This document shows, piece by piece, positions 27,901 through 46,940 of a stretch of DNA of 64,000 nucleotides. Within the stretch, counting starts at the first letter, position 1. Each line of letters starts with the position of its first letter. The DNA comes from Pontiella sp. (GTDB lineage: Bacteria > Verrucomicrobiota > Kiritimatiellia > Kiritimatiellales > Pontiellaceae): positions 135,031-199,030 of the forward strand of contig JBNKHE010000009.1 in NCBI GenBank assembly GCA_050290185.1. The letters run 5' to 3'. Below the pieces are notes generated by a model. It saw only the letters and a program-made list of their open reading frames with translations. It made no database searches and was not told the origin of the DNA. The position numbers and the translations under genes were made by a program.

Positions 27901-28457
27901 TCGATCATTTGAACTGCTCCTACAACGATCTTAGTGCCCTCGATGTGTCCGGCTGCACCAACGTGACCGCATTGTACTGCAATGACAATAACCTGACCGC
28001 CCTTGATGTGTCCGGGTTCGACCATATCACCACGCTCTACTGCAATAACAACGACCTGACCTCTCTGGGCGTCTCATATTGTAAGGACATACGGTATGTG
28101 TACTGCGGCAGCAACAACCTCACGAGCCTTGACATGCGCTGGGACTGGGACCTGAGTGTGCTTTCCTGTTACGCCAACAACTTGACTTCGATCAATCTGA
28201 CGGACAATGGGCGGCTTGGATGGCTGTATTGCGAGAGGAACAACCTGACCTCTCTTAATTTGCGTTACAACATCAAGCTACAGTTTCTGAACTGCTCCGA
28301 GAATGCATTGACCGGAAGCCTTGATCTTTCCAAAAATATAAAGCTGACCTATGTCAACGCCACAAGCAACAGCTTGTACGAGATCATTGTTGCCGATACC
28401 AACAGCCTGCCGGCCACATTTCTCTATGACTCAGGCGTAATAATCAGAGAGCCATAA
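24984..28457 (+). CDS. Secreted Gly-rich/passenger-repeat protein with choice-of-anchor D-like Ig domain and C-terminal leucine-rich repeats
   Basis: Signal peptide; VNNAGDNGSGSLRQAI; Gly-rich region; KTGEGTMVLTGTNPYEGGTTIDGGVL passenger repeat; LHIASNDSDENPF; LxCxxNxLxxLD repeats. Confidence 0.85.
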   Translation: MKTLPVLLISLALLSSATASTFTVNNAGDNGSGSLRQAIEDLNAAGGNGHTITFDSSLAGQTITWSTNPPIIQAGVIIDGSNATNLTISGGGSNRVFFIDLPNSNDAVTIQDLTIADGAATGGAGGEGDRYYGAGGGGGLGAGGGLFVNKGDVTATRVVFSDNQAVGGSGGSSVLSNKKGGGSGGGLVGNGGDAGVTGGGGGGGLANPGSNGGNPAGGDGSDGALGGSGSGVAGADATVGGGGGGGSGASGGDGADFGGGGGAGSNSSDPGSGGFGGGGGGAGEKKGNYSSGGFGGGGGGAGGGMPSFSSPGGSGGAYGGDGGYHESDFNSTGAGGGAALGGAIFVRSSNGGSLVLVDCSESGSAVTGGVGGISHGEPKRNGQAGQAVASGMFLLGSDAAFEVSSGQTNTFAGDIVDSAYNEDGSAAETRYGVVKTGEGTMVLTGTNPYEGGTTIDGGVLSVTDESALGSGGITISSGGALEVTGSSASIAQDVVNEGSVFVTGTNQLTFKGAVSGSGNYPGDGQVDFENYFSPGGDADSATIDFGGDVTFDSSSVLRFFIGGDQTGQYDSVSVEGDLQLGGYLFALPLGAFKAAPGDAFVLCNVGGTLSGTFSGVILPADSQAWYTDYDTMGGRVIVGVEPRLPEIAVEQPAGTDIVDGGAKDFGTVQTGNVERLTFTIRNTGVGDLTGLDITIDGADASSFSVTTAPMTSVARSGSTTFVVEFAPESFGIKTAALHIASNDSDENPFEIALSGLGALPSYDNAPIDFHVASVIGTNVSLEWNPGSSFYIIERSTNLIDGTWAYVSDVLLTNAIALTNEAPHVFYRISQVLPLVFSDPQLEAAVWSGISSKYAPSTWLFDVDVEGVEVLDVSSRSVSNMTGVSSLHDLTGLFCGGNSFPSLELTDQPDLQNLLCQNGTMTELTLSGCPGLSVLHCENNTLSELDLTACTNLSWVSCENNSLTNLDLTTHQALDHLNCSYNDLSALDVSGCTNVTALYCNDNNLTALDVSGFDHITTLYCNNNDLTSLGVSYCKDIRYVYCGSNNLTSLDMRWDWDLSVLSCYANNLTSINLTDNGRLGWLYCERNNLTSLNLRYNIKLQFLNCSENALTGSLDLSKNIKLTYVNATSNSLYEIIVADTNSLPATFLYDSGVIIREP

Positions 28458-28471
28458 AAGGGCGTTGTTAG

Positions 28472-31400
28472 ATGAAAAAATATACTCTGAGATTGTTATC
28501 AAGTTGTAGTTTGATACTCACACCTCGCCTTACGTGCTGGATCGGCTTCGTCAGTCTTCTCTCGTGCCTGTCGACGTACGCTCAGGGGACCAATTCCTGG
28601 TTTAATTCCAGCTATTCATTTGAGAGTTCCATTGAAGACGCTTCAGGAAGCTGGCAGCCGACACTCGGGGGAACACAGGCCTATGTTGCAGCGAACAATA
28701 GCCAGGCGCTGGACATGGTCGGGCAGACCTATCTCGAATTTCCCATCGAGATGAGCCAGGCGATCGATACAAATGAATCATTTTACCTGAGCGTCGATTT
28801 CATGCTTCCGCCGGAGGACGGCATTGACGAGAGCTATCGGTTTATCGCGTGTAACAAAAGCTGGGCTTATGATGAACCCGGTTTTCGCATTGTCGCCTAC
28901 AACGAAAAGACAGGGAATAAACAGCAGGATACGGTTTACATCGTTTTTAGCGTTGGCATTGGAGATGGCGAGATTTTAAAGCGCTTCGATGATGTCAAAA
29001 TGGGCGAGTGGCAGAATGCCTCTATCCACGTTGACTTTACCGCTCAAACCGTCGTTTTTTCACTCTCCGGTCGAACGGTTGAACAGCCACTCACTGAATA
29101 TTCGTGGGGTGGCCCCGCCGATCCGAGTCGGTTTATTCAGGCGATGAATGAAAATGTGATCCGCATCGGTGTTCCCGGACCCGGATATTTTGGAGAGGTA
29201 CCTTGGGTTAACTGGCATCTGGTTGATAATGGCGATAATACAACCCTTCATCCCGCCCGGATACAAATTGACAACCTCCAAATCAGCGCTCCCCGTCCTC
29301 CAGGCGATCCTCTTAACGTCATTGACGCCCTGGAACGGTTTACCGCGCATCTACAGGGAACCAATATACTGGATGACGCAACGGCCGAGACGCTGCTGGA
29401 TCAATTGCGTAGCAACATCATTGGCGTTGAGCTCGCCGACATCCAGCCGGCCGCCCGTACGTTCCTGGACGAACACGGCGCCCGGATCGGTTCCCTCTAT
29501 ACGGCAGATGGAAATGTCAGCCGTTATATTGACTTTTCATCGGTATCCCAAGCCTACGTCGACCTCGGGGTGTGGATTCTGGAAGCGGGTTTAAACGCCG
29601 ACAACGCCCACCTGCTGGAAGGCCTCACCCTGGTCGAGCATGAACTTTTCCCGGGTGAACTTTCACCGGGAGCTGAACGAGTCACGAATGGAGTTGCGAA
29701 TATCCGCGCCCAATATGTGCCCGACCCTTGGTATCGCATGGGCGGGATGCAGATCAATCCGAACAACGAATTGTCCTCAACCCTCTACCGGCCAACGGGT
29801 TTTTACGCGCCGGCCGGAGAGCTGGTCACCGTAACGGTGGATCCTGCTCTCGTCGATTCAGGTTTGTACATCCGGGTGGGAGCCCACAAGGAAAACCACA
29901 TTCTGCTCTCCCAAACAGGCCGTTTCCCGCTCATCAGCAAGGATTACCGGATTGAATCGACCAGCTTTCAGGTCATCAATCCGTTTGGGGGAAGTATCCA
30001 GGTGCTGGTTCCGGAAGGAACCGACCTCGGCTGGGTCGACATCCGGTTTGATGGTGCGGTTCGGGAGCCTTATTACTCGGCGCGCGCAGGTCGTGAAACA
30101 ACGTTGGCGGAATGGGACACGATTCGTCAATACCCCGGACTTTTTGCCAACCTGGAATCCGACAAATACGTGATCACCGTGCGTGCGTCGGCACTGCGGA
30201 ACTTCGACCAGCCCGATATCCTCATGCAGAAATGGGATCAAATCATGGATATAGAACAAGTGATCCACGGGCGCCCGCTGGAACGATCGCGAGCCGAAGG
30301 ATTTTTGGCCGATATATCAACCGCAGTCGTGGGCTCCGCCCCCGGAGGCTATCCCGTGACTCCGGGGCTTTTCGCCGAAGGCCCCACCGACATCACCGAT
30401 GGATACTATTCGCCTTTTGCGGTTTTGGATGTAAACCGCCTCACTGTACGTAACGATTTTAACGTGATGCTGCATGAAATGTCCCACTACCATCTGGGTC
30501 GATATATTGAAGTCGGCGGACAGGAATCGTTTGTCAATCTCCCCATGGCTGCCGTGCTCAATATAATGTATGGCTTCAGCTTCGACGATGCGCTCAAATA
30601 CTCGCTCAAACAGCATCTTACCCGTACCGATGCGGCCATCGACTGGATGGTCACCTACAACTTCCGGCATAGAAACCCCATCGGTCGGGACCCCTCTTCT
30701 ATCCTCGAAACCGCCTATCAGGCCAGGGGCCACGCCAAATATGTCGATCTCGCCGACCTCGGGGGTGGATGGGAGGCCGTTGGCGATGTTTACAAAGTGT
30801 TCTATGACGAGGACAAAGCCAGCGGCATTCCGGCAACGTATACTCATCAAATCGGCGTTTCACACGATGAGATTCTGCTCAAAGGCTCGCAGGGACTGGG
30901 TTATAACCTGGCGTCTCTCTTTCACTTCTGGGGCATCCATCCCTCGGAAGCAGTCGCCACCCAACTCGCCGCGTATCCGAACCTGCCCGGGGCATCGGAC
31001 CGGATCCTGCATTATCTCGAAGCCGCTCCCCGAACCAATGAGGAACTCCGTCAGTTCCATGCCGAGAAAACCAGGGATGACCTGAATCAGCTAAAATCCG
31101 CGGTGTATGAACCATTGATGGAGGTGTTCGACGAGAGCTACGGACAACAGATCCGCGATCAGGGCGCGTATATTTTAACTAAATACTTCGGCATCACACC
31201 CGATGCTCCGCCCACAACTCCCCAGCCAACCACGGTTGCCTTTGACCTGAACACCAACACCAATTCAGTAGTCACCTTTTCATGGACGCCGTCCGTCGAT
31301 CCCGAGGAGCGGGAACTGAACTATTCCTGGAAACTCTATGACCCGGACACAAGCGAAGTCCTGCTTTCCAGGTCTTGGGTAAGCGCCACCCATATTGATT

Positions 31401-31846
31401 TCACCGTGGGCGAGTTGACCGCGGCGCTCGGCGACCGCATGGAAACCAATACCCTGTCGCGGCTCGCCCAGCGAGTGACGACATCCGATCCTTATACGAT
31501 TGTCAGCAGCGATGAACTCGTATCGGGATTTTATAACGGCCAGGCCTCACTCCCCGGCAACGACACAGATGGTGACGGTTCTTCTGATGCGGACGAGCTA
31601 TTTGTCGGCAGTGACTATCTTGACAGCTCGTCTTTTCCCAGGGTCTTTGTCCAGCCAAGTGGAACAAATGGTTTTCTGTTCAGTTGGCCGGTCTTTAGGA
31701 CAGGCCTGCAATACGAACTGCTTGGAACCACCAATCTGGTGACCGGCCCATGGTCGAGTCTCGGCATCACCGCCTCCAGCAATATCCTGTACTCCACCAC
31801 CAATGCCGCCATGTTCTATCGAATCGATGCGACCGAAGGCCATTGA
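28472..31846 (+). CDS. Secreted M60-like (mucinase-type) zinc metallopeptidase with N-terminal lectin-like domain
   Basis: PTGFYAPAGELVTV, NPFGGSI, GGYP, LHEMSH...QESFVN (HExxH..E); C-terminal DTDGDG...TTNLVTGPW...FYRI module. Confidence 0.85.
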   Translation: MKKYTLRLLSSCSLILTPRLTCWIGFVSLLSCLSTYAQGTNSWFNSSYSFESSIEDASGSWQPTLGGTQAYVAANNSQALDMVGQTYLEFPIEMSQAIDTNESFYLSVDFMLPPEDGIDESYRFIACNKSWAYDEPGFRIVAYNEKTGNKQQDTVYIVFSVGIGDGEILKRFDDVKMGEWQNASIHVDFTAQTVVFSLSGRTVEQPLTEYSWGGPADPSRFIQAMNENVIRIGVPGPGYFGEVPWVNWHLVDNGDNTTLHPARIQIDNLQISAPRPPGDPLNVIDALERFTAHLQGTNILDDATAETLLDQLRSNIIGVELADIQPAARTFLDEHGARIGSLYTADGNVSRYIDFSSVSQAYVDLGVWILEAGLNADNAHLLEGLTLVEHELFPGELSPGAERVTNGVANIRAQYVPDPWYRMGGMQINPNNELSSTLYRPTGFYAPAGELVTVTVDPALVDSGLYIRVGAHKENHILLSQTGRFPLISKDYRIESTSFQVINPFGGSIQVLVPEGTDLGWVDIRFDGAVREPYYSARAGRETTLAEWDTIRQYPGLFANLESDKYVITVRASALRNFDQPDILMQKWDQIMDIEQVIHGRPLERSRAEGFLADISTAVVGSAPGGYPVTPGLFAEGPTDITDGYYSPFAVLDVNRLTVRNDFNVMLHEMSHYHLGRYIEVGGQESFVNLPMAAVLNIMYGFSFDDALKYSLKQHLTRTDAAIDWMVTYNFRHRNPIGRDPSSILETAYQARGHAKYVDLADLGGGWEAVGDVYKVFYDEDKASGIPATYTHQIGVSHDEILLKGSQGLGYNLASLFHFWGIHPSEAVATQLAAYPNLPGASDRILHYLEAAPRTNEELRQFHAEKTRDDLNQLKSAVYEPLMEVFDESYGQQIRDQGAYILTKYFGITPDAPPTTPQPTTVAFDLNTNTNSVVTFSWTPSVDPEERELNYSWKLYDPDTSEVLLSRSWVSATHIDFTVGELTAALGDRMETNTLSRLAQRVTTSDPYTIVSSDELVSGFYNGQASLPGNDTDGDGSSDADELFVGSDYLDSSSFPRVFVQPSGTNGFLFSWPVFRTGLQYELLGTTNLVTGPWSSLGITASSNILYSTTNAAMFYRIDATEGH

Positions 31847-31918: not shown

Positions 31919-32333
31919 GACGGGATGAACAGGATTTTCAGGATAGGGATGAATAGAATCCAGGTCATCCAGTGAATCCTGTCTAAAAATCGACGGCATG
32001 GTCTCGGTCACCATAAAAATCTCTGCGTCCTCAGCGCCTCTGCGAGGAATAAAAAGGGCGCTGGGGAAACGTACCGCAGGCGTCTCGCCTGCCCCGTCGT
32101 ACGGAAATTAGAGGAAAAACCTTAACCTAGTACCATTCATATGGTGCCTGTAAATCTCTGCGACCTCAGCGCCTCTGCGAGGAATCTCTCCCGGAACGGT
32201 TGCACCGCGTGCGGCGCAGGAAACGGGGCTTTTGATCCAGAACCCATTGGGCTTCCTGATAAGTTTTTACCACCCGCTGCGCTTGAGTTCACGGAGGGAA
32301 TTCCTCGGTGTGCCTCAGTGTCCTCTGTGGTGA
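31919..32333. repeat. Cluster of palindromic/REP-like elements preceding the defence island
   Basis: CAGGAT-unit palindrome 31919-31983; CTCTGCG half-elements 32021-32047 and 32156-32182; GTACCGCAGGCGTCTCGCCTGC at 32071; CTCGGTG/CTCAGTG/CTCTGTGGTGA at 32304-32333. Confidence 0.7.
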
Positions 32334-32641: not shown

Positions 32642-34795
32642 ATGAGTGATTCTAATTTTCAGTCCCTATCTAACTTTATCTGGTCTGTTGCGGACCTTCT
32701 TCGAGGTCCATATCGTCCGCCCCAGTATGAGCGGGTAATGCTCCCCATGACAGTGCTTCGGCGCTTTGACTGCGTATTGGAGCAAACCAAGGACAAGGTG
32801 CTGGCAAAGCATGCGCAGCTGGAAGCCAGTGGCAAGGTCAAAAATCCTGACGCCACGCTTAACAAGATCGCCAAGGATTCGGAAGGCCGTGAACTTGGCT
32901 TTCACAATCACAGCTCGCTCGATTTCCAGAAGCTTAAGGGCGATCCCGACAATATAGGCCGTCACCTGCAGGACTATATCAACGGCTTCTCTCAGAATAT
33001 CCGCGACATCTTCGAGAAATTTGAGTTCGACAAGGAAATCGAGAAGATGGAGGAGTCGAACCGCCTCTATCTGGTGGTATCCAAGTTTGCTGAGATGGAC
33101 CTGCATCCGGATCGCGTGGACAACATCAAAATGGGATTGGTCTTCGAGGATCTCATTCGGCGCTTTAATGAATCCGCCAACGAAACGGCCGGGGATCACT
33201 TTACCCCGCGCGAGGTCATTCGACTAATGGTCAATCTGCTGATGGAACCCGATGACGATCTCCTCACCAACGGTAGCCCGATTGTGACGATCTGCGACCC
33301 GGCCTGCGGAACCGGCGGGATGCTTGCCGAAGCGCAGAATTGGATTCGCCAACACAACGACAACGCCATCGTGAAAGTGTTCGGGCAGGATTACAATCCG
33401 CGCTCGTATGCCGTTGCTGCCTCCGACCTGCTCATCAAGGGGCACAAGGACAGCCGCGTTGAAATGGGAAACACCCTGACGGAGCCTCCCTTCGAGGATA
33501 TTGACGGCTTCGACTATCTGCTCGCCAACCCGCCCTTCGGCGTCGATTGGAAGGCCGAACAGAAGGAGATCAAAAAATGGAAGGACTTTAACGGCTACGA
33601 AGGCAAACTTCCGCGCGTGAACGACGGCGCGCTACTTTTCCTGCTCTACATGCTTTCCAAGCGGCAGGATTTTCGTCCGTCGCCTGATCCGCAAAAGAAT
33701 AAGCGCGGAACCCGCATCGCCATTGTGTTCAATGGTTCGCCGCTGTTCACCGGCGGAGCAGGCTCCGGCGAAAGCGATATCCGCCGTTGGGTGATTGAGA
33801 ATGACTGGCTCGAAGCCATCGTCGCCCTGCCGGAACAGATGTTCTACAACACCGGAATCGGCACCTTTATCTGGATCGTCACCAACCGGAAATCGAAGCA
33901 GCGCAAAGGCAAAATTCAACTGATCGACAGCCGCGACCGCTGGAAGCCGATGAAGCGCAGTCTCGGAGACAAACGACGCTACCTCGATATCGATACCATT
34001 GACACGCTTACGCGCGAGCATGGCGAATTTGAGAAAAACGCCACCAGCAAGCTCTTTGACAACATAGATTTCGGCTATCGTCGTATCACTGTTGATCGAC
34101 CCTTACGCCTACGCTTCCAGATCAATGATGAGGCCAAGGAAAATTTCCTGAATGCCTGTCCCGAGTTGTTTGATGCTGTTGAGACCGTGGAGGAAGAGCT
34201 CGGCACCGAAAACTATTTCAATTGGAATACCACCTGGGTAGACGTGCAACGCATCGTGAAGGAGTGCGAAATCGGATGGGAGTCTGGAGCCAAGGGAACC
34301 AAACAAAAGAAACTCTTCCGCGATTGCTTCACTCAAACCGATCCCAAGGCCGAACCGGTCATCGCCAAGCGCGGCAGTTTCCTAGGAATTGTCGGTGAGA
34401 AAAACTTCCCCGGACAAACCCTCCCGGACGACCTCAGCCCGCAGGAGCTGGGTCAAATTTTCGGCGTATTTCCAGAAACCAAGGGAAAAAAAGGCAAGGC
34501 CGTTCAATTCGAGGCCGATCCCAAACTGCGGGACAACGAAAATATCCCGCTCAAGGAAGACATCATTTCCTTCTTCCTCCGCGAAGTGCGCCCCTACGTC
34601 GCCGACGCCTGGATCAGCTCCGACACAAAGCTGCGGGACGAGAAAGACGGCGGCATCGGCAAGGTCGGCTATGAGATCAACTTCAATCGCGAATTCTTTA
34701 GCTACCAGGGGCCTCGCAGTCTGAAGGAAATCGACAAGGAGTTGGCTGCAGTCGAAAGCCGCATTCTTGAAATGCTCAAAGAGGTGACGGAGTGA
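32642..34795 (+). CDS. hsdM: Type I R-M methyltransferase subunit (N6-adenine)
   Basis: FIWSVADLLRG, HFTPREVI, DPACGTGG (motif I), NPPF (motif IV), FYNTGI, GYEINFNR. Confidence 0.96.
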   Translation: MSDSNFQSLSNFIWSVADLLRGPYRPPQYERVMLPMTVLRRFDCVLEQTKDKVLAKHAQLEASGKVKNPDATLNKIAKDSEGRELGFHNHSSLDFQKLKGDPDNIGRHLQDYINGFSQNIRDIFEKFEFDKEIEKMEESNRLYLVVSKFAEMDLHPDRVDNIKMGLVFEDLIRRFNESANETAGDHFTPREVIRLMVNLLMEPDDDLLTNGSPIVTICDPACGTGGMLAEAQNWIRQHNDNAIVKVFGQDYNPRSYAVAASDLLIKGHKDSRVEMGNTLTEPPFEDIDGFDYLLANPPFGVDWKAEQKEIKKWKDFNGYEGKLPRVNDGALLFLLYMLSKRQDFRPSPDPQKNKRGTRIAIVFNGSPLFTGGAGSGESDIRRWVIENDWLEAIVALPEQMFYNTGIGTFIWIVTNRKSKQRKGKIQLIDSRDRWKPMKRSLGDKRRYLDIDTIDTLTREHGEFEKNATSKLFDNIDFGYRRITVDRPLRLRFQINDEAKENFLNACPELFDAVETVEEELGTENYFNWNTTWVDVQRIVKECEIGWESGAKGTKQKKLFRDCFTQTDPKAEPVIAKRGSFLGIVGEKNFPGQTLPDDLSPQELGQIFGVFPETKGKKGKAVQFEADPKLRDNENIPLKEDIISFFLREVRPYVADAWISSDTKLRDEKDGGIGKVGYEINFNREFFSYQGPRSLKEIDKELAAVESRILEMLKEVTE

Positions 34796-36078
34796 GTCTG
34801 TCGGCCAATAGCAATTTTTGGGGGTTGGATACTGATAATATGGATTATGCCCACCTGAAATGGAGGGCAAAGATCTTTAGTGGAGGAACTCCCTCAAGGA
34901 ATATTGAAGAGTTTTGGGTAGGAGGATCGCTTCCTTGGCTTGGTTCTGGAGCCGTGAATCAACGTCTAGTTGTTGAGCCAACGGCCTTCATTACAGAAGA
35001 AGCTGTCTTGAACTCTTCAACGAAGCTCATGCCCTCTGGGGCCCTGATAATTGCCCTCGCAGGGCAAGGAAAAACAAAAGGAATGGTCGCTCAGCTTGGA
35101 ATGGACTGTTACGGAAACCAATCGCTTGCTTGCATTGAGCCTGTTGCAGATTCATCTCGCTTTCTTTATTGGTGGTTGGCTTCAAAATATATTCAGATTC
35201 GTGGATTGGCTAGTAATGAATCACGCGACGGCTTGAATCATGAAATGATTGGAATAATACCCATTCCGATAATTTCCAGTTCAATTCAGAATCAGATTGC
35301 TAGCTATCTCGACCGAGAGACCGCACGAATCGACGAACTGGTCGAAGCGAAAGAGTCCATGCTCCAGTTGCTAGAGCAAAAGCGAGCCGCCCTGATCAGT
35401 CGCGCGGTGACGCGCGGCCTCGATCTAAAAGCCCCTACAAAACCTTCCTGTCTCGATTGGCTTGGAGAGATTCCTAAGCATTGGCGCATAATGCGAGCAA
35501 AGGGATTATTTCACGAGGTCGATAGTCGAACGGAGACTGGTGAAGAAGAGCTTCTCTCTCTCAGAATGCACGTAGGACTGGTTCCTCATCACGATGTTTC
35601 CGATAAGGAGCTGGAACCCAAAGACGTAATCGGGTTCAAAAAGGTTAAAGCCGGTCAGTTAGTAATTAATCGAATGCGCGCTTCCATGGGCTTGATTGCC
35701 ATCGCGCCGAGTGATGGGCTGGTCAGTCCGGATTATGCGGTCTTTGACATTGTTCATGAAATCCACATTCCGTATTTCCTTGCTCTGTTCAATACTGGCT
35801 TGGTCGGAGCGCTCTTCCGGTCCTCCTCCAAAGGATTAGGAAACGGGTCACAAGGATTTCTCCGTCTCTACACGGAAAATTTTCTGGCGATCCATTTCCC
35901 AGTACCGCCAATTGAAGAACAAGAGAGTATAGTGAGATATCTCGACGATGAGCGGACGCAAACAGGTATTCTAGAAGCCGATCTCAAGAAGTCCATTGAG
36001 CTCTTGAAAGAACGCCGTTCGGCCCTGATCACCGCTGCCGTAACTGGAAAAATTCCTTTAGAGGAGATGGTTGTATGA
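34792..36078 (+). CDS. hsdS: Type I R-M specificity subunit
   Basis: Two TRDs separated by conserved QNQIASYLD...LISRAVTRGL and PPIEEQESI...LITAAVTGKI; GTGA overlap with hsdM. Confidence 0.93.
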   Translation: MSLSANSNFWGLDTDNMDYAHLKWRAKIFSGGTPSRNIEEFWVGGSLPWLGSGAVNQRLVVEPTAFITEEAVLNSSTKLMPSGALIIALAGQGKTKGMVAQLGMDCYGNQSLACIEPVADSSRFLYWWLASKYIQIRGLASNESRDGLNHEMIGIIPIPIISSSIQNQIASYLDRETARIDELVEAKESMLQLLEQKRAALISRAVTRGLDLKAPTKPSCLDWLGEIPKHWRIMRAKGLFHEVDSRTETGEEELLSLRMHVGLVPHHDVSDKELEPKDVIGFKKVKAGQLVINRMRASMGLIAIAPSDGLVSPDYAVFDIVHEIHIPYFLALFNTGLVGALFRSSSKGLGNGSQGFLRLYTENFLAIHFPVPPIEEQESIVRYLDDERTQTGILEADLKKSIELLKERRSALITAAVTGKIPLEEMVV

Positions 36079-37427
36079 AATTGAAAAAACTGACCTTCTC
36101 GAATTTTCGCGGATTCCAGCAATTGGATTTGGATCTCTGTGATGACCTGACCGTTATTGCCGGGGTAAATGGAAGCGGGAAATCGGGGGTTCTTAAAGGA
36201 ATCGCGAATTTGGCGTCTTATTTAGCCCCGAATGTATCTCCGGCAAAGATCTCTGCTATTCCTTTTGAGAACAGTGATATTCATGCTGGAAAATCGGCGT
36301 TCACAATCAGTGCAACCTTTTCTGACGATATCATCCGAACCTATGCCCATGTTACACGCTCTGTGCTGGACGCTAAAAAAATCCCCAAAATTCGGAAAGA
36401 GCTAGATGAGCTTAAAACCCAACGGCGCTTTATTGAGAAGGGTTCAAAGGAAGACAGGGAGGCCGAGGACCGGATTCATCAACTGAACGAACTGCTGAAA
36501 GATCCCGAAGATATTTTTTCCATTCAAACAGAGCGGATTAAGACTGGCGTAGAACCCAGTTCAGATGATGCGATGTTTTTGTTTTACCCCACGAACCGGG
36601 CGTTTAAACGTCTCCCTCCGCGGCTCTCCGGTGTTAAGGCGATGTCTCCGGCCGATGCGTATGCCAAGGCTCTTGATAAAGTGGAAATCAGTCTGAATGA
36701 TTTCGCCGTCTGGTTTCGCGTAGTAAAGCAGGGTAAGCTTGGCGGGAAGTCGTTTGGGAAAGTCCTGCTCGCAATGCTGGAAAAAACAGTTCAGGACATG
36801 CTGCCTGGTTTCTCAGGTCTTTTGCTCAAAGAAACCCCGCATCCTCATTTCACAATTAAAAAAGAAAAAATCAGGTTTAGTTTAGAGCAGCTTTCCGATG
36901 GTGAGCGCGCGTTGTTAGCCCTTGCTTTTGACCTGATCCGCCGATTGACCCTTGCGAACCCGGAGAGCAAAAACCCAGCAGAAGAAGGCAAGGCGCTGGT
37001 TATGATCGATGAAATTGAGTTGCACCTTCATCCTACATGGCAGCGACAAGTTCTTCGGCGTCTAATGGCTGCATTCCCACAATGTCAGTTTATAGTGACA
37101 ACGCATTCTCCCCTTGTGCTAGGTGAGGTAGAAGCTAGGTGTGTACGATATTTAGAACAGAACGATGAGACCGGTAAAATCGAAGCATTCACCCCGCCGG
37201 AGTCGTTTGGCCTTGATGCGAATCGTATCTTGGATGAACACATGGGTGGCTCGGAGCGAAATGTAGACCTAGCCGCAGCGCTTAACAACGTGTTCAGCAT
37301 GATCGACGAAGAGCATTTCGCTGATGCTCGGAAGGCCATGGTACCAATCATTAAGCGCCTTGGAGAAAATGATCCTGAAATCACACGGGCTCAATCATTG
37401 ATAAAGTTTCTGGAAAGCAGTGAATGA
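36075..37427 (+). CDS. PtuA-like ABC/AAA_21 ATPase
   Basis: NFRGF, Walker A GVNGSGKS, signature LSDGE, Walker B/D-loop IDEIELHLHPTWQ, H-switch TTHSP; ATGA overlap with hsdS. Confidence 0.88.
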   Translation: MKLKKLTFSNFRGFQQLDLDLCDDLTVIAGVNGSGKSGVLKGIANLASYLAPNVSPAKISAIPFENSDIHAGKSAFTISATFSDDIIRTYAHVTRSVLDAKKIPKIRKELDELKTQRRFIEKGSKEDREAEDRIHQLNELLKDPEDIFSIQTERIKTGVEPSSDDAMFLFYPTNRAFKRLPPRLSGVKAMSPADAYAKALDKVEISLNDFAVWFRVVKQGKLGGKSFGKVLLAMLEKTVQDMLPGFSGLLLKETPHPHFTIKKEKIRFSLEQLSDGERALLALAFDLIRRLTLANPESKNPAEEGKALVMIDEIELHLHPTWQRQVLRRLMAAFPQCQFIVTTHSPLVLGEVEARCVRYLEQNDETGKIEAFTPPESFGLDANRILDEHMGGSERNVDLAAALNNVFSMIDEEHFADARKAMVPIIKRLGENDPEITRAQSLIKFLESSE

Positions 37428-38065
37428 GAAATATCCAGAAACAAACAGAGCCTCGGTCGTTAACTGAGCACAAATGTCAACCGCATGCTGATTACGACAA
37501 CTATGCCGAAAAAGACGATTTACGGCGATCACTTGTAGAAGAGCAGAGGGGAATCTGTTGCTACTGCATGAAACGAATACAGTCTAGTTCCGCCTCCATG
37601 AAAATAGAGCATTGGCGAGCCCAATCAGCTGATAAATATCCAGAACTGCAGCTAGAATACAGCAATTTACTTGGTGCGTGTTGTGGTGGTGAAGGACAGC
37701 GCAAGCAGGATCAGCATTGTGATACACGTAAGGGCAATGATGATCTCAGATACAATCCGGCCGATCCTGCACATGATGTAGAACGTTTATTCTCTTTTCC
37801 CGGATCGGGACGCATCGAGGTTAGAGGGAATGATTCTGCGTTGCAGGCGGAGCTTGATAATGTTCTGAACCTTAATCATTCACTATTAGTTCGGAATCGT
37901 AAAAGTGTGATTGACGCCTTCAAAACTTCTTTGGGAAGGCGCAACATGTCTAAAGCTGACTTCCAGCGAGAGTTAAGGAAGTGGAATGGTTCTGATGGTG
38001 GGGAGCTGGCGCAATACTGTCAGGTTGTGGTTTATTATCTAAAAAAGAAGTTGAAAATCCCATGA
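37424..38065 (+). CDS. PtuB-like HNH endonuclease (TIGR02646-type)
   Basis: LVEEQRGICCYCM, IEH, YSNLLGAC, HCDTRKGN, LNLN..L..NR; ATGA overlaps with both neighbours. Confidence 0.88.
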   Translation: MRNIQKQTEPRSLTEHKCQPHADYDNYAEKDDLRRSLVEEQRGICCYCMKRIQSSSASMKIEHWRAQSADKYPELQLEYSNLLGACCGGEGQRKQDQHCDTRKGNDDLRYNPADPAHDVERLFSFPGSGRIEVRGNDSALQAELDNVLNLNHSLLVRNRKSVIDAFKTSLGRRNMSKADFQRELRKWNGSDGGELAQYCQVVVYYLKKKLKIP

Positions 38066-41000
38066 AACAGACATCCGAAAGCGCATTTGAGACCGTCATC
38101 GAAGAAGTCATGCTGTCGAATGGTTACGTTGGTCACATCTCTAAGGATTTTGATGCGGAGTTGGCGATTTTTCCAGAGATTGCATTAAACTTTATCCGCG
38201 ATACCCAGCCGAAGGTTTGGGGAAAACTGGAGGCTCTCCACCAGGAAAAGACCGGGGAACGGGTGATTTCCGCTCTCTGCAAGTGGATGGATACTCATGG
38301 CGTCCTGAATACGCTGCGCCACGGATTCAAATGCTACGGAAAAACCCTGCGAATCGCTTTTTTCAAGCCTGCCCACGGTCTGAATCCCGAGCTGGAAGCT
38401 CGCTATGCTGGAAATATTCTAGGCATCACGCGCCAACTTCATTTCAGCACGAAGCGACCCAATGACAGTCTTGACGTGACCTTGAGCGTGAACGGCGTTC
38501 CGATTGTCACGATGGAGCTGAAGAATCCGCTGAGCGGACAGGCGGCCGCCAATGCGATCCGTCAGTATCGCCATGATCGTGACCACCGGGAAAAGATTTT
38601 CGATTTTAAGAAACGTACGCTGGTTCATTTTGCGGTCGATACCGAGGAAGTCCACATGACTACGCGGCTGGCCGGTGGCGCAACCCATTTCCTGCCGTTT
38701 AACCGTGGTCGCGATGGCGGTGCAGGCAATCCTCCTGATTCTGAGGGGCGGAACTATCGAACCGCGTATCTGTGGGAAGAGGTATTGGAGCGAAACAGCT
38801 TCATGGATCTTTTGGCGCGGTTTCTTCACCTTCAAATCGAGGAGAAGCGGACCGAAGATGGGAAGAAGGTGAAGAAGGAGACCATAATCTTCCCTCGCTA
38901 CCATCAATTACAGGCGGTACGGGAAATGGTAGCCGCGGCAGCCACGGAAGGCACGGGGCACAATTATCTAGTGGAGCACTCGGCCGGCAGCGGCAAGAGC
39001 AATACGATTGGCTGGCTCGCCCATCGGCTTTCCAGTCTGCACAACGAAGCGGACGAACGGGTGTTTGACAGCGTGATTGTTGTGACCGACCGCATTGTCC
39101 TCGACCAACAGCTTCAGAATACAATCTACCAGTTCGATCACCGTCAGGGGGTGGTGGAGAAAATAGATGAAGACTCCCGCCAGCTAGCGGAGGCATTGGA
39201 GAATGCAGTACCGATCATCATTACTACGCTCCAGAAGTTTCCATTCGTATCTCAGCAACTCCTGAAGATGGCAGAGGAACGGGGCGAGGAACGTAGTCAC
39301 CTGCCCACCCGGAAATGTGCGGTGATCATCGATGAAGCCCACAGTTCACAATCCGGAGAGACGGCGACCGATCTAAAGGAAGTCCTAGGGGGCGAAGCGC
39401 TGCGGGAGAAGGCAAAGGTACTGGCTGCCGAAGAGGGTGAATCAAATCTAGAAAAAATGTTTCGCAGCATGGCCAAGCGGGGAAAACAGCCGAATTTGAG
39501 CTTCTTTGCCTTCACCGCTACGCCTAAGCACAAAACCCTGAAGGTGTTTGGCCGAAGGGGAGCCGCCTTCAGTAAATACACGATGCGGCAGGCAATTGAA
39601 GAGGGCTTCATCGAGGACGTACTGAAAAACTATGTTACCTACAAGACCTACTACAAGCTACTGAAGGCCTGCAAAGACGACCCGAACGTGGAGCGCAAGA
39701 AAGCCGCCCGTGCCCTGAGCCGTTACATGCGCCTGCATCCGCACAATATTTCGCAGAAAACGGCAGTTATGGTGGAGCATTTCCAGAGCTTCAGTCAGCA
39801 CAAGATCGGCGGCCGTGCGAAGGCAATGGTCGTTACGGGATCGCGATTGGAAGCGGTCCGTTATAAACAATCCTTCGATGCCTACATAGCGAAGAAACGA
39901 TATGAAATCAAAAGCTTGGTCGCGTTCTCCGGCACCGTTATAGACGACAAGGTTCCTAGCAAGACCTACACTGAGCCGGAAATGAACGGTGGAATACGGG
40001 AGAAGGATCTGCCGGAGGAATTCGGAACCAATGAATATCAAGTGTTGTTGGTCGCTGAGAAATACCAAACCGGCTTCGATCAGCCTCTCCTTCATACGAT
40101 GTATGTAGACAAACGGTTGGCGGGTATTCAGGCCGTTCAGACGCTTTCTCGATTGAATAGAACCCACCCCTTGAAAGAGGACACCTTTGTTCTCGATTTC
40201 GTCAACGATCCGGAAGAGATCCAGGCTGCGTTCAAAGTCTATTATGATGGTGCCTCGATGGGCGAGGAAGTAGAGCCCGAACGCCTTTATGAGATTAAAG
40301 CGGAACTCGACGAATCAGGTATTTACCGGAATGACGAAATTGCGGAGTTCTGCCGCGTATTTTTCGCGCCACGTAAACGGCAGAGCTCCAGCGATCACAA
40401 GGCAATGAATGCGGTCTTGGACAAGGCTTCGAATCGCTTCATGGAACTTCAGGAATCCAACGAAGAAGAAGCTGAATTGTGGCGTGGAAAACTTCACGCC
40501 TTTAGAAATCTGTATGCGTTTTTGAGCCAGGTGATTCCATATCAGGACAGTGACCTTGAAAAGCTGTATGCATACCTGAAACATCTCGCGCTGAAGCTTC
40601 CGAAGCGAAAATCGGGGCCGGGTTATCAGTTCGACGATGAAGTCCAGCTTGAGTATTACCGGTTGCAGAAGATAAGCGAGGGTTCGATTAGTTTGAGTGA
40701 GGGGGTAGGGAAACCGCTGGATGGCCCAAAGGAAGTCGGTAGCGGATTGGTGAGGGAAGAGAACGTCCCATTGTCTCGTCTGATTGATCTTATCAACGAA
40801 CGCTTTGGAGAAAACCTGACTGAAGCCGACCAGCTGTTTTTTGATCAGATCACGGAAGCCGCAACACAAGTTGAGGCCATCCGACAGGCTGCAGAGAATA
40901 ATCCAATCGGGAAGTTTCAGTTAGTTTTTGGCGAAATTCTAGAGTCCCTATTTATCGAACGAATGGATCTCAACGAAGATCTTTTCGCCAAATACATGAA

Positions 41001-41085
41001 CGACCCTGAATTCAAAGAGGTCGCCGCCGAGTGGCTTGGTCAGCAAGTCTACTCGAAAATTCCAAAAACAGCCTCTTACCGGTAA
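38062..41085 (+). CDS. hsdR: Type I R-M restriction subunit
   Basis: D..L.VNGVP...ELK nuclease motif, HSAGSGKS, DEAHSSQ, FTATP, TGFDQP, QTLSRLNR. Confidence 0.96.
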   Translation: MKQTSESAFETVIEEVMLSNGYVGHISKDFDAELAIFPEIALNFIRDTQPKVWGKLEALHQEKTGERVISALCKWMDTHGVLNTLRHGFKCYGKTLRIAFFKPAHGLNPELEARYAGNILGITRQLHFSTKRPNDSLDVTLSVNGVPIVTMELKNPLSGQAAANAIRQYRHDRDHREKIFDFKKRTLVHFAVDTEEVHMTTRLAGGATHFLPFNRGRDGGAGNPPDSEGRNYRTAYLWEEVLERNSFMDLLARFLHLQIEEKRTEDGKKVKKETIIFPRYHQLQAVREMVAAAATEGTGHNYLVEHSAGSGKSNTIGWLAHRLSSLHNEADERVFDSVIVVTDRIVLDQQLQNTIYQFDHRQGVVEKIDEDSRQLAEALENAVPIIITTLQKFPFVSQQLLKMAEERGEERSHLPTRKCAVIIDEAHSSQSGETATDLKEVLGGEALREKAKVLAAEEGESNLEKMFRSMAKRGKQPNLSFFAFTATPKHKTLKVFGRRGAAFSKYTMRQAIEEGFIEDVLKNYVTYKTYYKLLKACKDDPNVERKKAARALSRYMRLHPHNISQKTAVMVEHFQSFSQHKIGGRAKAMVVTGSRLEAVRYKQSFDAYIAKKRYEIKSLVAFSGTVIDDKVPSKTYTEPEMNGGIREKDLPEEFGTNEYQVLLVAEKYQTGFDQPLLHTMYVDKRLAGIQAVQTLSRLNRTHPLKEDTFVLDFVNDPEEIQAAFKVYYDGASMGEEVEPERLYEIKAELDESGIYRNDEIAEFCRVFFAPRKRQSSSDHKAMNAVLDKASNRFMELQESNEEEAELWRGKLHAFRNLYAFLSQVIPYQDSDLEKLYAYLKHLALKLPKRKSGPGYQFDDEVQLEYYRLQKISEGSISLSEGVGKPLDGPKEVGSGLVREENVPLSRLIDLINERFGENLTEADQLFFDQITEAATQVEAIRQAAENNPIGKFQLVFGEILESLFIERMDLNEDLFAKYMNDPEFKEVAAEWLGQQVYSKIPKTASYR

Positions 41086-41096
41086 GTAGGTATTGC

Positions 41097-41543
41097 ATGA
41101 AAACAAAGCTTACATTTAAACCGATTTGCCCGGATTCAGGATTAGAAGAGTGGTGCGAGATTCATGCTTTGGTTAATTGGTCGATGTTAGAACCTTACTG
41201 GCTAAAAGAAACTGACATTGGTCAGCCAGATAGAGCTATGCTCACCGGGTATTTGCGCCGCTGGTTTCGTGATAGTGGCTTCGTCCCTCCTAACATTTAT
41301 TGGAATAGATGCGGGGAATGCATCAGTTTTAATAATGGCAGGCATCGATTGGCATTGATAACGAAGCATCAGTCTGAGATGCCAGTGGTTTTAAGTGGCC
41401 AATCAATTCTACAACCCGAGATTCACCGAGCTGTTATTCGGATTTTGGAACCTGGCGATGAAGTCGAACTGCCGGATTTGGATTTTGTAGAGAGGAAGGG
41501 AATTATCCCGGTTAACAATGGGAAAATAAGGACAAAGCTGTAG
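41097..41543 (+). CDS. Hypothetical protein with ParB/sulfiredoxin-like motif
   Basis: ATG 12 nt after the hsdR stop; PPNIYW...ISFNNGRHRL...MPV resembles the ParB-N/Srx xxGxHR motif. Confidence 0.5.
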   Translation: MKTKLTFKPICPDSGLEEWCEIHALVNWSMLEPYWLKETDIGQPDRAMLTGYLRRWFRDSGFVPPNIYWNRCGECISFNNGRHRLALITKHQSEMPVVLSGQSILQPEIHRAVIRILEPGDEVELPDLDFVERKGIIPVNNGKIRTKL

Positions 41544-41620: not shown

Positions 41621-42982
41621 GTGAGGAAGATTATGGAAATTGCGATACCCGGCGAAGCAAGAGAAAAGATAATTTCCATCTGGGATGGTTATATAGCGAG
41701 CAACCAAACTGTACTTGATACGAAGGGTAAGGAGATAAACAACATAGACTCCCTGCGACTTGAAGCTATCGGTGAAATCATGGAGATGATCGATGATTTT
41801 CAAAGCGGAACGATCAATATTCACGAATTCAAGTCTGCGCTGGATGGCTATAACAAACGCAATAATCTATGGGGATTCACAGCAACAAAGGGTCAGATGT
41901 TTTTCAATCAGTTGGTGAAAAACGAGGATGATTTAGAAGGTCTGACTGCGTTGCTTCAGGAATCAATTAAGGAACCAAATGATTTAAATGGTGCTCTGGC
42001 AACAATCAAGGCACTTGAGGTCCATGTATCAAAGGCATACAAGAAAGCTACTGACAAAAGGAAGGTCGCTAAACCCAGTTCTGTTAGCTACTTTCTGTCA
42101 TACTTTTGGCAGATACATGATCCGAAAAAATGGCCCATTTATTATACATCGCTGATTGAGGCTTTCACTGATTTAGGACTCTGGGCTGAATATGACTCGC
42201 AAAGCGAGTGCTACGAATATTTCTACCAATTGAATGAAGCAATTAAGCAGTTGTTAGCAACTCACGCGGGGAAGACTATATCCAACTGGGAGGCAGAACA
42301 TGCGTTCTGGCTCTACAAAGGCAATCCAAATAAATCATCCACTACCTCGAAAAAAACAACAGTTCCCCAAGGTTCAATATCTACTGAAGGAGGTTCAGCA
42401 TCTTCGTTATGTGCATCTTTTGATTTGGCAGATTACCTAATCCCTAAAGTTGCGAACTTAGTTGAGTTGGGCGCTGATAATGAAAAGTCCGCAGCGGCCA
42501 AAGGGCACGAATTTGAGAAAAAAGTGTCCGAAGTCTTCAGACTGCTGGATTTTGATGTGGAAACACTGGGGCAGGGTTCTGGCCGCAATCCTGATGCCAT
42601 AGTTAAGTGCCGCGAACAGAATACGGCATTCATCATAGATGCAAAGGCTTACAGTAAAGGCTATGCACTGGGTTTAGATGATCGTGCCATTAAGGAGTAC
42701 ATTAATCACCATTGCCCTAAGTTGGCAAAAAATGGGTATAAGAAGATTGGATTCATCATTGTCAGCAACTCCTTTAAGTCTAACTTTGATGGATTTATCA
42801 ATGAGATTACATGGAGCACGGATATCAGACGTTTCATTCTGCTGACTACGAAGGCTCTCTTGTATTTATTGGCCTACAAAACCAAGGACAATCTAACGAC
42901 GGATGTAATTATTGATAAGCTGGTTGGCTGTGGAAATTTGGTCGATGCAAACAGCATTATTCAAGAATTTGATGACGTTTAG
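41621..42982 (+). CDS. Orphan restriction-like endonuclease with C-terminal FokI-type PD-(D/E)xK cleavage domain
   Basis: FEKKVSEVF...LGQGSGRNPDA...IIDAKAYSKGY...FIIVSNSFKSNF parallels FokI FEMKV...LGGSRKPDG...IVDTKAYSGGY...FVSGHFKGNY; AT-rich. Start GTG 41621 or ATG 41633. Confidence 0.75.
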   Translation: MRKIMEIAIPGEAREKIISIWDGYIASNQTVLDTKGKEINNIDSLRLEAIGEIMEMIDDFQSGTINIHEFKSALDGYNKRNNLWGFTATKGQMFFNQLVKNEDDLEGLTALLQESIKEPNDLNGALATIKALEVHVSKAYKKATDKRKVAKPSSVSYFLSYFWQIHDPKKWPIYYTSLIEAFTDLGLWAEYDSQSECYEYFYQLNEAIKQLLATHAGKTISNWEAEHAFWLYKGNPNKSSTTSKKTTVPQGSISTEGGSASSLCASFDLADYLIPKVANLVELGADNEKSAAAKGHEFEKKVSEVFRLLDFDVETLGQGSGRNPDAIVKCREQNTAFIIDAKAYSKGYALGLDDRAIKEYINHHCPKLAKNGYKKIGFIIVSNSFKSNFDGFINEITWSTDIRRFILLTTKALLYLLAYKTKDNLTTDVIIDKLVGCGNLVDANSIIQEFDDV

Positions 42983-43269: not shown

Positions 43270-46200
43270 ATGAAAATTGCAGACCTAACTTCCGGGTTGG
43301 AACTATTGATTAAACGTGTGGATATGAAATGGATCATGATCGCTTTGGCGGTTTTATGGGGTTCGGCCATGCCGGTCCGGGCGGCGGTGGTTTATGTGGA
43401 TGGCGATGCCGCCGGAGCGGATAACGGGACGTCGTGGAGCGATGCCTTCAACGGTCTGCAGGATGCGCTGGCATCGGCCGCCGGCAACGATGAGATTTGG
43501 ATTGCCGAAGGGACGTATACCAATGCGGCCACCTATGCCCTGGCGAACGATGCCATTACCATTCTCGGTGGATTCACCAATGGCATGGTGTCCGCGGAGG
43601 AGCGCGATTCCAACCTGTATCCGGTTATTCTGGATGGCCTTGGCGAACAGCACCGTATTCTGGAGCTAAACGGGGCCGATGTGGAGCTGGACGGCGTCAT
43701 CATCACCAATGCGCAGACCACGGCGTCCATCGGGACGGCCGGACTGAAAATCGCGGGGGCGACGAATGTGGTGTTACGCAATGTGTCCGTGGGGGGATGC
43801 TGGTCGCACAATCAGAATACAACGATCGATGGATTTGCTGTTTGTATTTCCGGCACGGGTACCGGCCGGGTTGATGTGGTGGATTGCCGTTTTGTGGATA
43901 ATCAAACCGGCCTTTACAACGGGGCGAATGGAATTGGTCTGAACGTGGGTTCATTCAGTCAATTAACGGTTTCGGGCTGCCTGTTCGAAAACAACATCAA
44001 GGGGCCCTCGTATAATGCCGTGTACGGGGGCGGATTGTATCTGTCGGACATCGGACAGGCGGTGGTCTCCAATTCTGTTTTCAGCGGAAACGGCGGCGAT
44101 CCCTACCAGGGGCGGGGCTGTGGCGGCGGGCTGTATGTCGGCGCCAATGCAAGCGCCGTGGTTTCCGACTGCGTATTCGACGCAAACTATCTGGTTAAGG
44201 GCAACGGCGGTTATGGCGGAGGGGCCATAGCGATGGAGAGCAGCAGCTCGGTCGTTTCGGTTGAGCGTTGTGTGTTCGAAAACAACGAAATAACGAGTGC
44301 GGGCTACGGCGGTGCCATCTATATCGAAGCAGGCGTCGCGGATTTCGTGAACTGCCTGATGGCGAGCAACAGCGCCGACTATGGCGGCGCGGCCTACCTG
44401 GCATCGGGAAGTGCGCTGCACAACTGCACGGTCGCCGACAACAACGCCGGGCTGTCCGGCGGCGGCGTTTACTGCAAGGGTGCTGCCATCACCAACTCGA
44501 TTGTCTATGGGAATACCCTCACCAACGCCACGCCCGACAATGTGTATGACAATGGCGGATCCTATGCCTACACCTGCTCGAGCCCGTTGCTTTCCGGCGC
44601 AGGAAACATTGATTCCGATCCCTTGCTGTCCGACTACCTGTTGTCCAGCAACTCGCCGTGCCTAAACCGGGGACTGAACGAGGACTGGATGAACGGTGCC
44701 GTGGATCTGGCCGGCAGCAACCGGATCAGTGCATTGACTGTGGACATGGGGGCGTATGAATACGATCTCGTGCTCGACCTGCGGATCACCAATCCCGTGA
44801 ACGGCCTGGTGGTCGCCGCCCCGGCCTCCATCGCGGTTTCCGGCACCGGCACAAATCTCGCCGGCGATTTGGCCTGGACGAATGCGTTGACCGGCGAGAG
44901 TGGCACGACCACGGCAGGAACGAGCTGGTTCATTCCTTCCGTCTCCATCCTTGCAGGGGAAAACCTGATCTCGGTCTCCGGCACCAACGCGGAGAATGTG
45001 CCGATATACGACACGGTTTCCGTGACGGGCCTGTTCGCGGGCGACCTGTCGATCACAGCGGGCGATGTTACGACCACCAACCTCAACCGTTTTACGATCC
45101 AGGGCTCCAGTTCGAACCTACTGGGCAACATCGTCTGGAGCAATGCGCTGACGGGAACATCCGGCACCATCCCGGCGTCCACCGACTGGCAGTTTGTGTG
45201 TGATCTGGCGGAAGGGGCCAATGTGCTTACGGTTTCCGGCACCAACTCCAGCGGCACCATCGCCGACATGGTGACCGTGACTTCCGTGATTACGCCGGTG
45301 ATCCATGTGGATGCGGATGCCGCTGGAGGCAACGGCACCAGCTGGGCGGATGCTTTTGTGGATCTGCGCGATGCACTGGCTATTGCCACGACGCAGCAGA
45401 TCTGGGTGGCGGAAGGGCTGTATGTGCCGGATCAGGCGCGCGGTGGTCGTGTGACGGTGACGGACAACGATCCCAACGAAGTCTTCACCCTGCCCGATGG
45501 GGTGACGTTATATGGCGGATTCCAGGGTCTGGCATCCGAAACCAACCGGTTCCAGCGGAATCCGCGTGTCTATGCAACGGTCCTGAGCGGCGACATCGAC
45601 GGGAACGACATTAACAATGATGCCAACAACATGGCTGAGACTCCGGACGATGTGGTCGAAACAAATGCATACACGGTGGTGACGCTGGCCGACGGCGGCA
45701 GTGCCACGTTGGAGGGGTTTGTCATCACGGCGGGCAACGCGCCGAATGCGTTCGCCGGGGCCAGCGGGGCCGGCGGCGGGTTCTACTCCAAGAATGCCGG
45801 AACCATTTCGATGGGAGATTGCAGGTTCCTCGGCAATGCCGCCCATGACGGAGGTGGAGCAATTTATGCAAACAACACTTCGCTGTTCCTGTACTCCTGC
45901 AGTATTCAGGGCAATCGTTCGGATAGCTCTGGCGGCGGGCTATCGGTCGATAATGGGCAAGCCCAGCTTGTGAGCACGCTGGTTTCCGGAAATGCCGCGG
46001 CTACCGGGAGCGGCATCCGGTGTCTTTACTCGGATGTGCTCCTCGCTAATTGCACGATAGTCGGGAATGCATCAGCGTCTCAGGGCGGCGGACTTCGGGC
46101 GGACCGTTCGAGTATTTACATGTACAATTCGATTGTCTGGAACAACAGTGATTCCAGTGGCTCCAACAGCGCTTCCTCCACCATCTTTTTTGGAGGTGTC

Positions 46201-46869: not shown

Positions 46870-46940
46870 GATGGTTGTTGCCGCGATCTATGATTCGATC
46901 TGAACACAAAAATAAATTCGAATAGAATGGAGTTATTTTT

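Follow-up and report, generated by a model that had tools for sequence, protein, structure and literature searches.

Does a PtuA/PtuB nuclease pair lodged inside a type I restriction-modification (R-M) operon answer to the Hsd proteins around it, or does it act on its own? The question is raised by a locus of Pontiella sp. (Kiritimatiellales, Verrucomicrobiota; assembly GCA_050290185.1, completeness 95.5%), in a stretch of 64,000 nt from contig JBNKHE010000009.1 (135,031-199,030), which is called the window here and whose numbering is used for all its features. Five frames on the + strand, hsdM-hsdS-ptuA-ptuB-hsdR, occupy 32642-41085. Among the loci read, the PtuA lineage of this operon appears only in the slot between hsdS and hsdR. 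We therefore consider, tentatively and with slightly less than even confidence, that PtuAB may be a second-line, growth-arresting nuclease coupled to the HsdM-HsdS methylase.

The operon contains hsdM, hsdS and hsdR, all with intact motifs, and so encodes a type I R-M system. hsdM (32642..34795, +) encodes a type I N6-adenine methyltransferase of 717 aa (PADLOC PDLC03029, 836 bits; Pfam N6_Mtase and HsdM_N) with intact DPACGTGG (219) and NPPF (296) motifs, and hsdS (34792..36078, +) encodes a specificity subunit of 428 aa (PADLOC Specificity_I, 246 bits; Pfam Methylase_S). The restriction subunit of 1007 aa encoded by hsdR (38062..41085, +) was recognized by Pfam HSDR_N, SWI2_SNF2 and ResIII and by PADLOC REase_I (130 bits); its nuclease and helicase motifs are present, and its TIGR00348 score of 203 bits lies below the cut-off of 285. 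Between hsdS and hsdR lie ptuA (36075..37427, +), for an ABC-type ATPase of 450 aa, and ptuB (37424..38065, +), for an HNH nuclease of 213 aa. Consecutive genes overlap by 4 nt, at 34792 (GTGA) and at 36075, 37424 and 38062 (each ATGA), and both the coordinates and the junctions are as described in an earlier note on this DNA. The ptuA start codon and a purine-rich AGAGGAG, a putative ribosome site for ptuA, lie within the final hsdS codons. The earlier note had also held that there is no room for a promoter or a non-coding RNA (ncRNA). Intergenic space is indeed lacking and Rfam gave no match anywhere in the window, but promoters inside the genes could still serve; a sigma-70 scan found 8 sites, with 11.8 expected by chance.

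The ATPase-HNH pair is a type I Septu system. PtuA matched PADLOC PtuA1 (PDLC00271) with 366 bits over residues 1-448 and PtuB matched PtuB1 (PDLC00322) with 246 bits, both at full length, and PtuB scored 74.6 bits with TIGR02646, above the cut-off of 52.15. The hidden Markov model searches that had been proposed for the pair thus bear out its suggested identity. PtuA has an intact Walker A motif (30-37), signature LSDGE (273-277), Walker B/D-loop (310-320, with D312 and E313 in Walker B) and H-loop (342-345), together with a variable helical hairpin (103-140) and C-terminal helices (382-448); the PtuB motifs are CCYC (45-48), H63, N81, C86 and HC (98-99). An AlphaFold2 model of PtuA had a predicted local distance difference test score of 86.9, and every listed top match of this model in Foldseek was a PtuA, at a template modelling score of about 0.6-0.65. 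As in the type I Septu systems of 8EE4/8EE7/8EEA and Ec-B88 (PMC13096335), the gene for an ABC ATPase is followed by an HNH gene, reverse transcriptase (RT) is absent and the fold is the same; by structural alignment the window PtuA is 21-22% identical to 8EE4/8EEA. Three other assignments were rejected. The MAD3 model of MADS (NF047739) gave 41.8 bits (cut-off 420), and the partner gene is HNH, not a Toprim MAD4; TIGR04435, the restriction system-associated AAA ATPase, gave 56.8 bits against 300; and for a single-chain PrrC the best PADLOC models were PtuA1 and PtuB1, with PrrC not among the best 25 listed.

A retron was rejected as well. For a type I-A retron, hsdS overlaps ptuA, RT is lacking and Rfam has no match upstream of ptuA; for the Ec78 family, the NCBIfam scores were 253.8 against a cut-off of 500 and 115.4 against 150, with a protein of 450 aa. 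The 3 RVT_1 matches in the whole assembly fall on just two contigs, 502 and 717 bases long (G000:C159, G000:C64). Read by eye, their translations resemble what we take to be RT fragments of long terminal repeat retrotransposons, and the two tiny contigs are probably contamination of the assembly. No bacterial RT was found in the assembly, where the RVT_1 matches are confined to these two unrelated contigs of <1 kb, and the absence of RT from the window, claimed earlier, stands. To call the pair distinctive for being retron-less was an overstatement, since this is the usual state of Septu: RT is reported in 7.6% of Septu systems (PMC8565338). A stand-alone Septu cloned with 300-bp flanks only is reported to protect still (PMC13096335), and a substitute antitoxin is therefore not needed in principle.

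Relatives of PtuA were collected by scans of genomes (the best 80 of 588 confirmed) and of metagenomes (54 loci). Each of the 29 genome loci ranked highest adjoins one Hsd subfamily (best segments 51-79% for HsdM and 62-79% for HsdR), with PtuA only 30-46% identical. Above 222 bits, 45 of the 47 loci have hsd genes next to them and the other 2 are too short to judge; the 95 loci below it comprise 51 stand-alone, 31 short, 11 R-M and 2 retron loci. This threshold was chosen after the list was seen, and the tree is the fairer test. From 134 rows of at least 330 aa, 97 were kept in the PtuA tree; the rows left out were mainly cyanobacterial near-duplicates and distant rows, and neither L094 nor the copy in the window was included. 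Within one clade of 53 rows, 52 members were hsd-linked, one lay on a contig too short to tell and none was stand-alone; FastTree support was 81 for the whole clade and 98 and 100 for its halves. The R-M label required 3 changes on the tree, versus 32.1 when shuffled. In an IQ-TREE analysis of a 67-row subset the clade was hsd-linked in 26 of 26 rows, with a Shimodaira-Hasegawa-like approximate likelihood ratio test support of 99. The clade covers 12 named phyla (the phylum is known for 32 of the 52 rows) and reaches down to about 30% identity. Cultured environmental strains with such an operon include Pseudomonas sp. GM50 (L003), Gluconobacter kanchanaburiensis (L009) and Ketogulonicigenium vulgare (pYP1, L190). 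An evenly drawn sample of 401 genomes of the phylum yielded 18 PtuA-like matches, none of them inside the clade and none with an hsd gene within 1.5 kb. One locus labelled stand-alone, L073, is a fragment too short for the tree: the first 200 residues of its PtuA are missing, it lies among transposase-like frames, and an apparent remnant of the hsdR start, read by eye, follows downstream. In L073 and L025 the hsd genes are broken as well as ptuA. The survey of close homologues suggested in the earlier note thus found a clade confined to hsd operons, and the contexts of the nearest homologues are not random. Unlike other type I Septu, this clade was never stand-alone in the loci read and its ptuA overlaps hsdS. 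In the literature outside subscription papers and bioRxiv supplements, covered by titles and abstract openings, we found no Septu clade confined to R-M or controlled by Hsd; cases of Septu in R-M may well be counted in the tables of a preprint on embedded systems (bioRxiv 2024.01.29.577857).

The junctions within the operon differ in how often they are opened. The overlap of hsdS and ptuA is 4 nt in 43 of 50 loci; the two genes touch in 49, and no locus has a gene between them. In the 50th (L025), hsdS and ptuA are cut by insertion sequences and their ends still adjoin. Gaps of >100 nt were found between hsdM and hsdS in 10/42 loci and between ptuB and hsdR in 6/46 (Fisher p = 0.0002 and 0.01, respectively, both overstated, as the loci are related). 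The clade also lacks a motif of its nearest stand-alone relatives: W..EDxENE, at the base of the second PtuA insert, occurs in 0/54 clade rows and 0/120 best homologues, versus 41/48 stand-alone rows. Elsewhere it was found in 13/28 short rows, 8/18 rows of the phylum sample, 1/2 other embedded rows and 0/2 retron rows. Retron PtuA is reported to build the flap for its multicopy single-stranded DNA (msDNA) in this region, and retron capture to have been accompanied by PtuA remodelling (PMC12819146).

Most loci retain an intact hsdR. Beside an intact PtuAB, hsdR is frameshifted in L005 and L043, stopped in L030, a remnant in L004 and absent over 9 kb in L042, and some of these cases could be assembly errors. 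Because hsdR is often broken while PtuAB is intact, HsdMS is the likelier partner than HsdR. The hsdS gene itself varies in form: at L027:7243-10011, hsdM is fused in frame to half an hsdS with one recognition domain, followed directly by ptuAB-hsdR, and a half-size hsdS also occurs in L042 and L084.

In the proposed coupling, restriction by HsdRMS would be the first line of defence. ptuA would be translated in step with hsdS, and the HsdM-HsdS core, as opposed to HsdR, would offer PtuAB a docking site or keep it silent. PtuAB would be released or activated once an anti-restriction protein of a phage (Ocr, ArdA or Stp type) engages the methylase. To judge from characterised relatives, PtuA oligomers would hold PtuB, and the activated complex would cut tRNA or DNA (tRNA-Tyr or DNA in infected cells) and arrest the cell. 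In Septu Ec-B88 the two genes are reported to protect, the Walker A/B and HNH residues to be required and tRNA-Tyr to be cut upon infection (PMC13096335). The nuclease end, consisting of the PtuA C-terminal helices and PtuB, is swapped by recombination, which would vary the target and leave the ATPase behind hsdS; targets are reported to vary among PtuABs (PMC11555353).

Coupling is favoured because of the clade confinement, the agreement of the deep PtuA split with the deep HsdM split, the unopened hsdS-ptuA junction and the lost motif, and also because ptuA is broken together with hsd in L025 and L073 and a cargo control, GmrSD, is not confined. This control is small (n = 5): of the GmrSD matches, 2/5 lay beside hsd, namely the query and one relative at 56%, whereas 0/3 did so at 31-36% identity. 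At one GmrSD locus, L221 (G364:C11:8020-12559), the gene directly adjoins a PtuA-like gene that is distant, and the 1.5-kb flanks contain no match to hsd. More speculatively still, and somewhat further from even confidence, the clade may represent a third mode of Septu control, in which a single type I R-M subfamily would have recruited an old clade as a guard bound to the methylase. PtuA would read HsdM-HsdS and fire PtuB on jamming, and swaps of the C-terminus and PtuB would change the killing target with the sensor untouched.

Known guard systems provide partial precedents for such coupling. The parallel with PrrC of EcoprrI, drawn in the earlier note, stands for the slot: the order hsdM-hsdS-X-hsdR, the combination of an ABC-type NTPase with a nuclease and the near-exclusive linkage to type I R-M are shared. 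Latency imposed by the complete HsdRMS is weakened, with hsdR broken or missing beside an intact PtuAB in at least five loci. PrrC is reported to co-precipitate with HsdR (PMC3014915). Unlike PrrC, a single-chain anticodon nuclease beside a different Hsd family, the pair is a two-gene HNH system and hsdR is dispensable in several of its loci; Hsd control has been shown for PrrC, whereas here it is proposed. The template of the proposed model is Ronin, in which RonA is described as silenced by HsdMS, triggered by anti-restriction proteins and always linked to hsdM/hsdS (bioRxiv 2023.04.06.535777). The effector is likewise linked to hsdM/hsdS here, and the loss of hsdR with PtuAB intact agrees with control by HsdMS, as in Ronin, not with control by HsdR, as in PrrC. 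RonA, however, is a membrane protein of 61 aa and hsdR is missing from Ronin, whereas the operon here has an ATPase-HNH pair and a usually intact hsdR. The type I-A retrons Ec78/Eco7 and Ec83/Eco4 (Septu type II) also have a PtuAB effector, gave the best structure matches and offer a precedent for a PtuA clade remodelled under a new controller (PMC12819146). The window differs from them in having no RT or ncRNA, in a PtuA of 450 aa versus about 550 without the N-terminal extension, and in a second insert that is short where the retron flap sits.

The strongest alternative, a real possibility though somewhat short of even, is that PtuAB is an autonomous Septu carried as co-expressed cargo, which senses the phage itself through a structural protein, a DNA mimic or a nucleotide change. 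It would stay in the slot for want of its own promoter and ribosome site, moving by homologous recombination through conserved stretches of hsdS, ptuA and hsdR. Several observations fit it and weigh against coupling. Stand-alone Septu works alone (PMC13096335), and escape mutations of other Septu variants are reported to map to tail fibre genes (bioRxiv 2022.08.27.505566). The hsdS-hsdR slot is a general cargo hot spot. In a scan of 23 cargo ORFs, a subset of those from loci found through HsdR alone, 2 of the 5 loci with HsdR of at least 65% and visible upstream DNA carried clade PtuAB (L189, L190) and 3 carried other cargo, namely Schlafen/RecG-like proteins and an OLD/PARIS-like ATPase; 2 more such loci had no upstream DNA. 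At 45-59% HsdR (n = 17), one locus carries an unrelated Septu (L183) and others carry GmrSD, RhuM, DUF3800, a KAP NTPase or ABC ATPases. A second system can also share the slot with the pair, as at L019:13114-14889, where a dCTP deaminase defence gene lies between ptuB and hsdR. Defence cargo within type I R-M operons has already been described: such embedding is reported to be common, a back-up role has been voiced in general terms, and, as here, the cargo lies between core genes on the same strand (bioRxiv 2024.01.29.577857). Septu embedded in Hma is among the cases of that preprint, and its main text, unlike our survey, describes no Septu clade that is limited to type I R-M.

Two unrelated Septu lineages also lie inside hsd operons (L183, L193), and the L193 lineage has a stand-alone sister, L196; embedding alone therefore does not imply dependence. 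At L193:1579-10951 (NZ_CP072963.1), this unrelated Septu-like pair separates hsdS from hsdR in an operon of another Hsd family and adjoins a Tn7-like tnsD on an Enterobacter plasmid. Another Septu relative, at L197:5001-6851 (NZ_CP096966.1) in Phocaeicola, is a 617-codon PtuA-like frame annotated as HNH after a TIR-SIR2-TIR cluster, apparently a PtuA-PtuB fusion.

The fine structure of the operon likewise favours autonomy. PtuA residues 1-345 correlate with HsdM over 29 complete loci (rho 0.77), but this value rests on the deepest split, and within the main subclade rho is 0.28; there PtuB, without the swapped rows, tracks HsdM well (rho 0.80), and PtuA against the HsdS C-terminus gives rho -0.09. 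The PtuA insert at 91-165 averages 19% identity and is mostly missing in L024 and L030; as it is hypervariable and deletable, no conserved docking insert was found. PtuAB is intact where hsdS is frameshifted (L019) or split by about 2 kb (L062), W..EDxENE is also missing from retron PtuA and distant Septu, and the junction counts are drawn from related, not independent, loci. The operon itself is a recombining mosaic. PtuB tracks the PtuA C-terminus (rho 0.73-0.83), and 14 clade loci, dispersed across the PtuA tree, have a second PtuB type, with the sequence switch starting just past the H-loop; this joint swapping agrees with the reported binding of PtuB to the PtuA C-terminal extension (PMC12819146). 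L083 and L086 have near-identical PtuBs and PtuAs of different subclades. After ptuB, mini frames at L083:5900-6040, L084:4041-4180 and L086:3832-3970 join an hsdR-like start to an hsdS 3' end, with another small gene next, and are likely recombination scars. Confinement would thereby have a neutral reason, namely exchange by way of conserved flanking stretches together with a ptuA start that lies inside hsdS.

Against autonomy stand the absence of any intact escape in 52 readable rows, down to about 30% identity and over 12 phyla; the hsdS-ptuA junction, which is never opened whereas the hsdM-hsdS junction is; the GmrSD cargo, which shows no such confinement at equal depth (n = 5); and the loss of the motif of stand-alone relatives. 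Hsd can lack PtuAB, but clade PtuAB was not seen without Hsd among the loci read, an asymmetry also reported for PrrC (bioRxiv 2024.01.29.577857). The three close loci without PtuAB nest among PtuAB-bearing loci in the HsdM tree and read most simply as losses.

It is improbable that PtuAB is instead a second restriction arm, guided by HsdM-HsdS to unmethylated sites and cutting beside or in place of HsdR in the manner of MADS, without being an abortive guard. Loci that have lost HsdR and kept hsdMS-ptuAB would suit such a role, stand-alone PtuAB is reported to nick DNA (PMC12819146), and MADS is described as pairing N6-methyladenine (m6A) methylation with an ATPase-nuclease module (PMC13662399). 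However, hsdR is intact in most loci, the MAD3 score is far below its cut-off and MAD4 is of Toprim type, not HNH, and characterised PtuABs work by abortive infection (PMC13096335). That a mobile R-M island carries the pair as a neutral or decaying passenger is very improbable: the operon lies in a lower-GC stretch (island GC 0.42-0.54 versus genome 0.54) and the window ATPase was not found in 7/7 other searched genomes of the genus, but all ATPase and HNH motifs are intact and 31 clade members show no variation in the residues of Walker A, the signature, Walker B and the H-loop.

The low-GC island extends past hsdR. Directly 3' of it, an ORF at 41031..41543 (+; 170 aa from GTG, or 154 aa from ATG 41079; GC 0.44) belongs to the same island and had no Pfam, NCBIfam or PADLOC match. 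The next gene (41621..42982, +; GC 0.42 versus genome 0.54) encodes a protein of 453 aa that ends in a cleavage domain of the FokI type (Pfam PF09254; residues 279-434, 48.9 bits) and has an N-terminal part without a family; it is likely a further restriction-type defence nuclease of the island, outside the coupled operon. Upstream of hsdM, a 34-nt direct repeat, 97% alike, at 32017-32050 and 32152-32185 may be an intergenic repeat element. The island is flanked by large proteins that look secreted, with starts resembling signal peptides and C-terminal tails that are alike (24984-31846 and 43270-49091, +), and a second, distant hsdM-like gene (26% identity) lies elsewhere in the genome (G000:C11:96989-98155).

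If PtuAB is autonomous, the locus is another embedded Septu, of a kind already called by current annotation tools. If it depends on HsdMS, it would be a new R-M guard beside PrrC and Ronin, one that punishes phages with anti-restriction proteins and gives a direct handle on what switches Septu on. One ATPase-nuclease would then have been captured twice by different sensors, once by retron DNA and once by a methylase.

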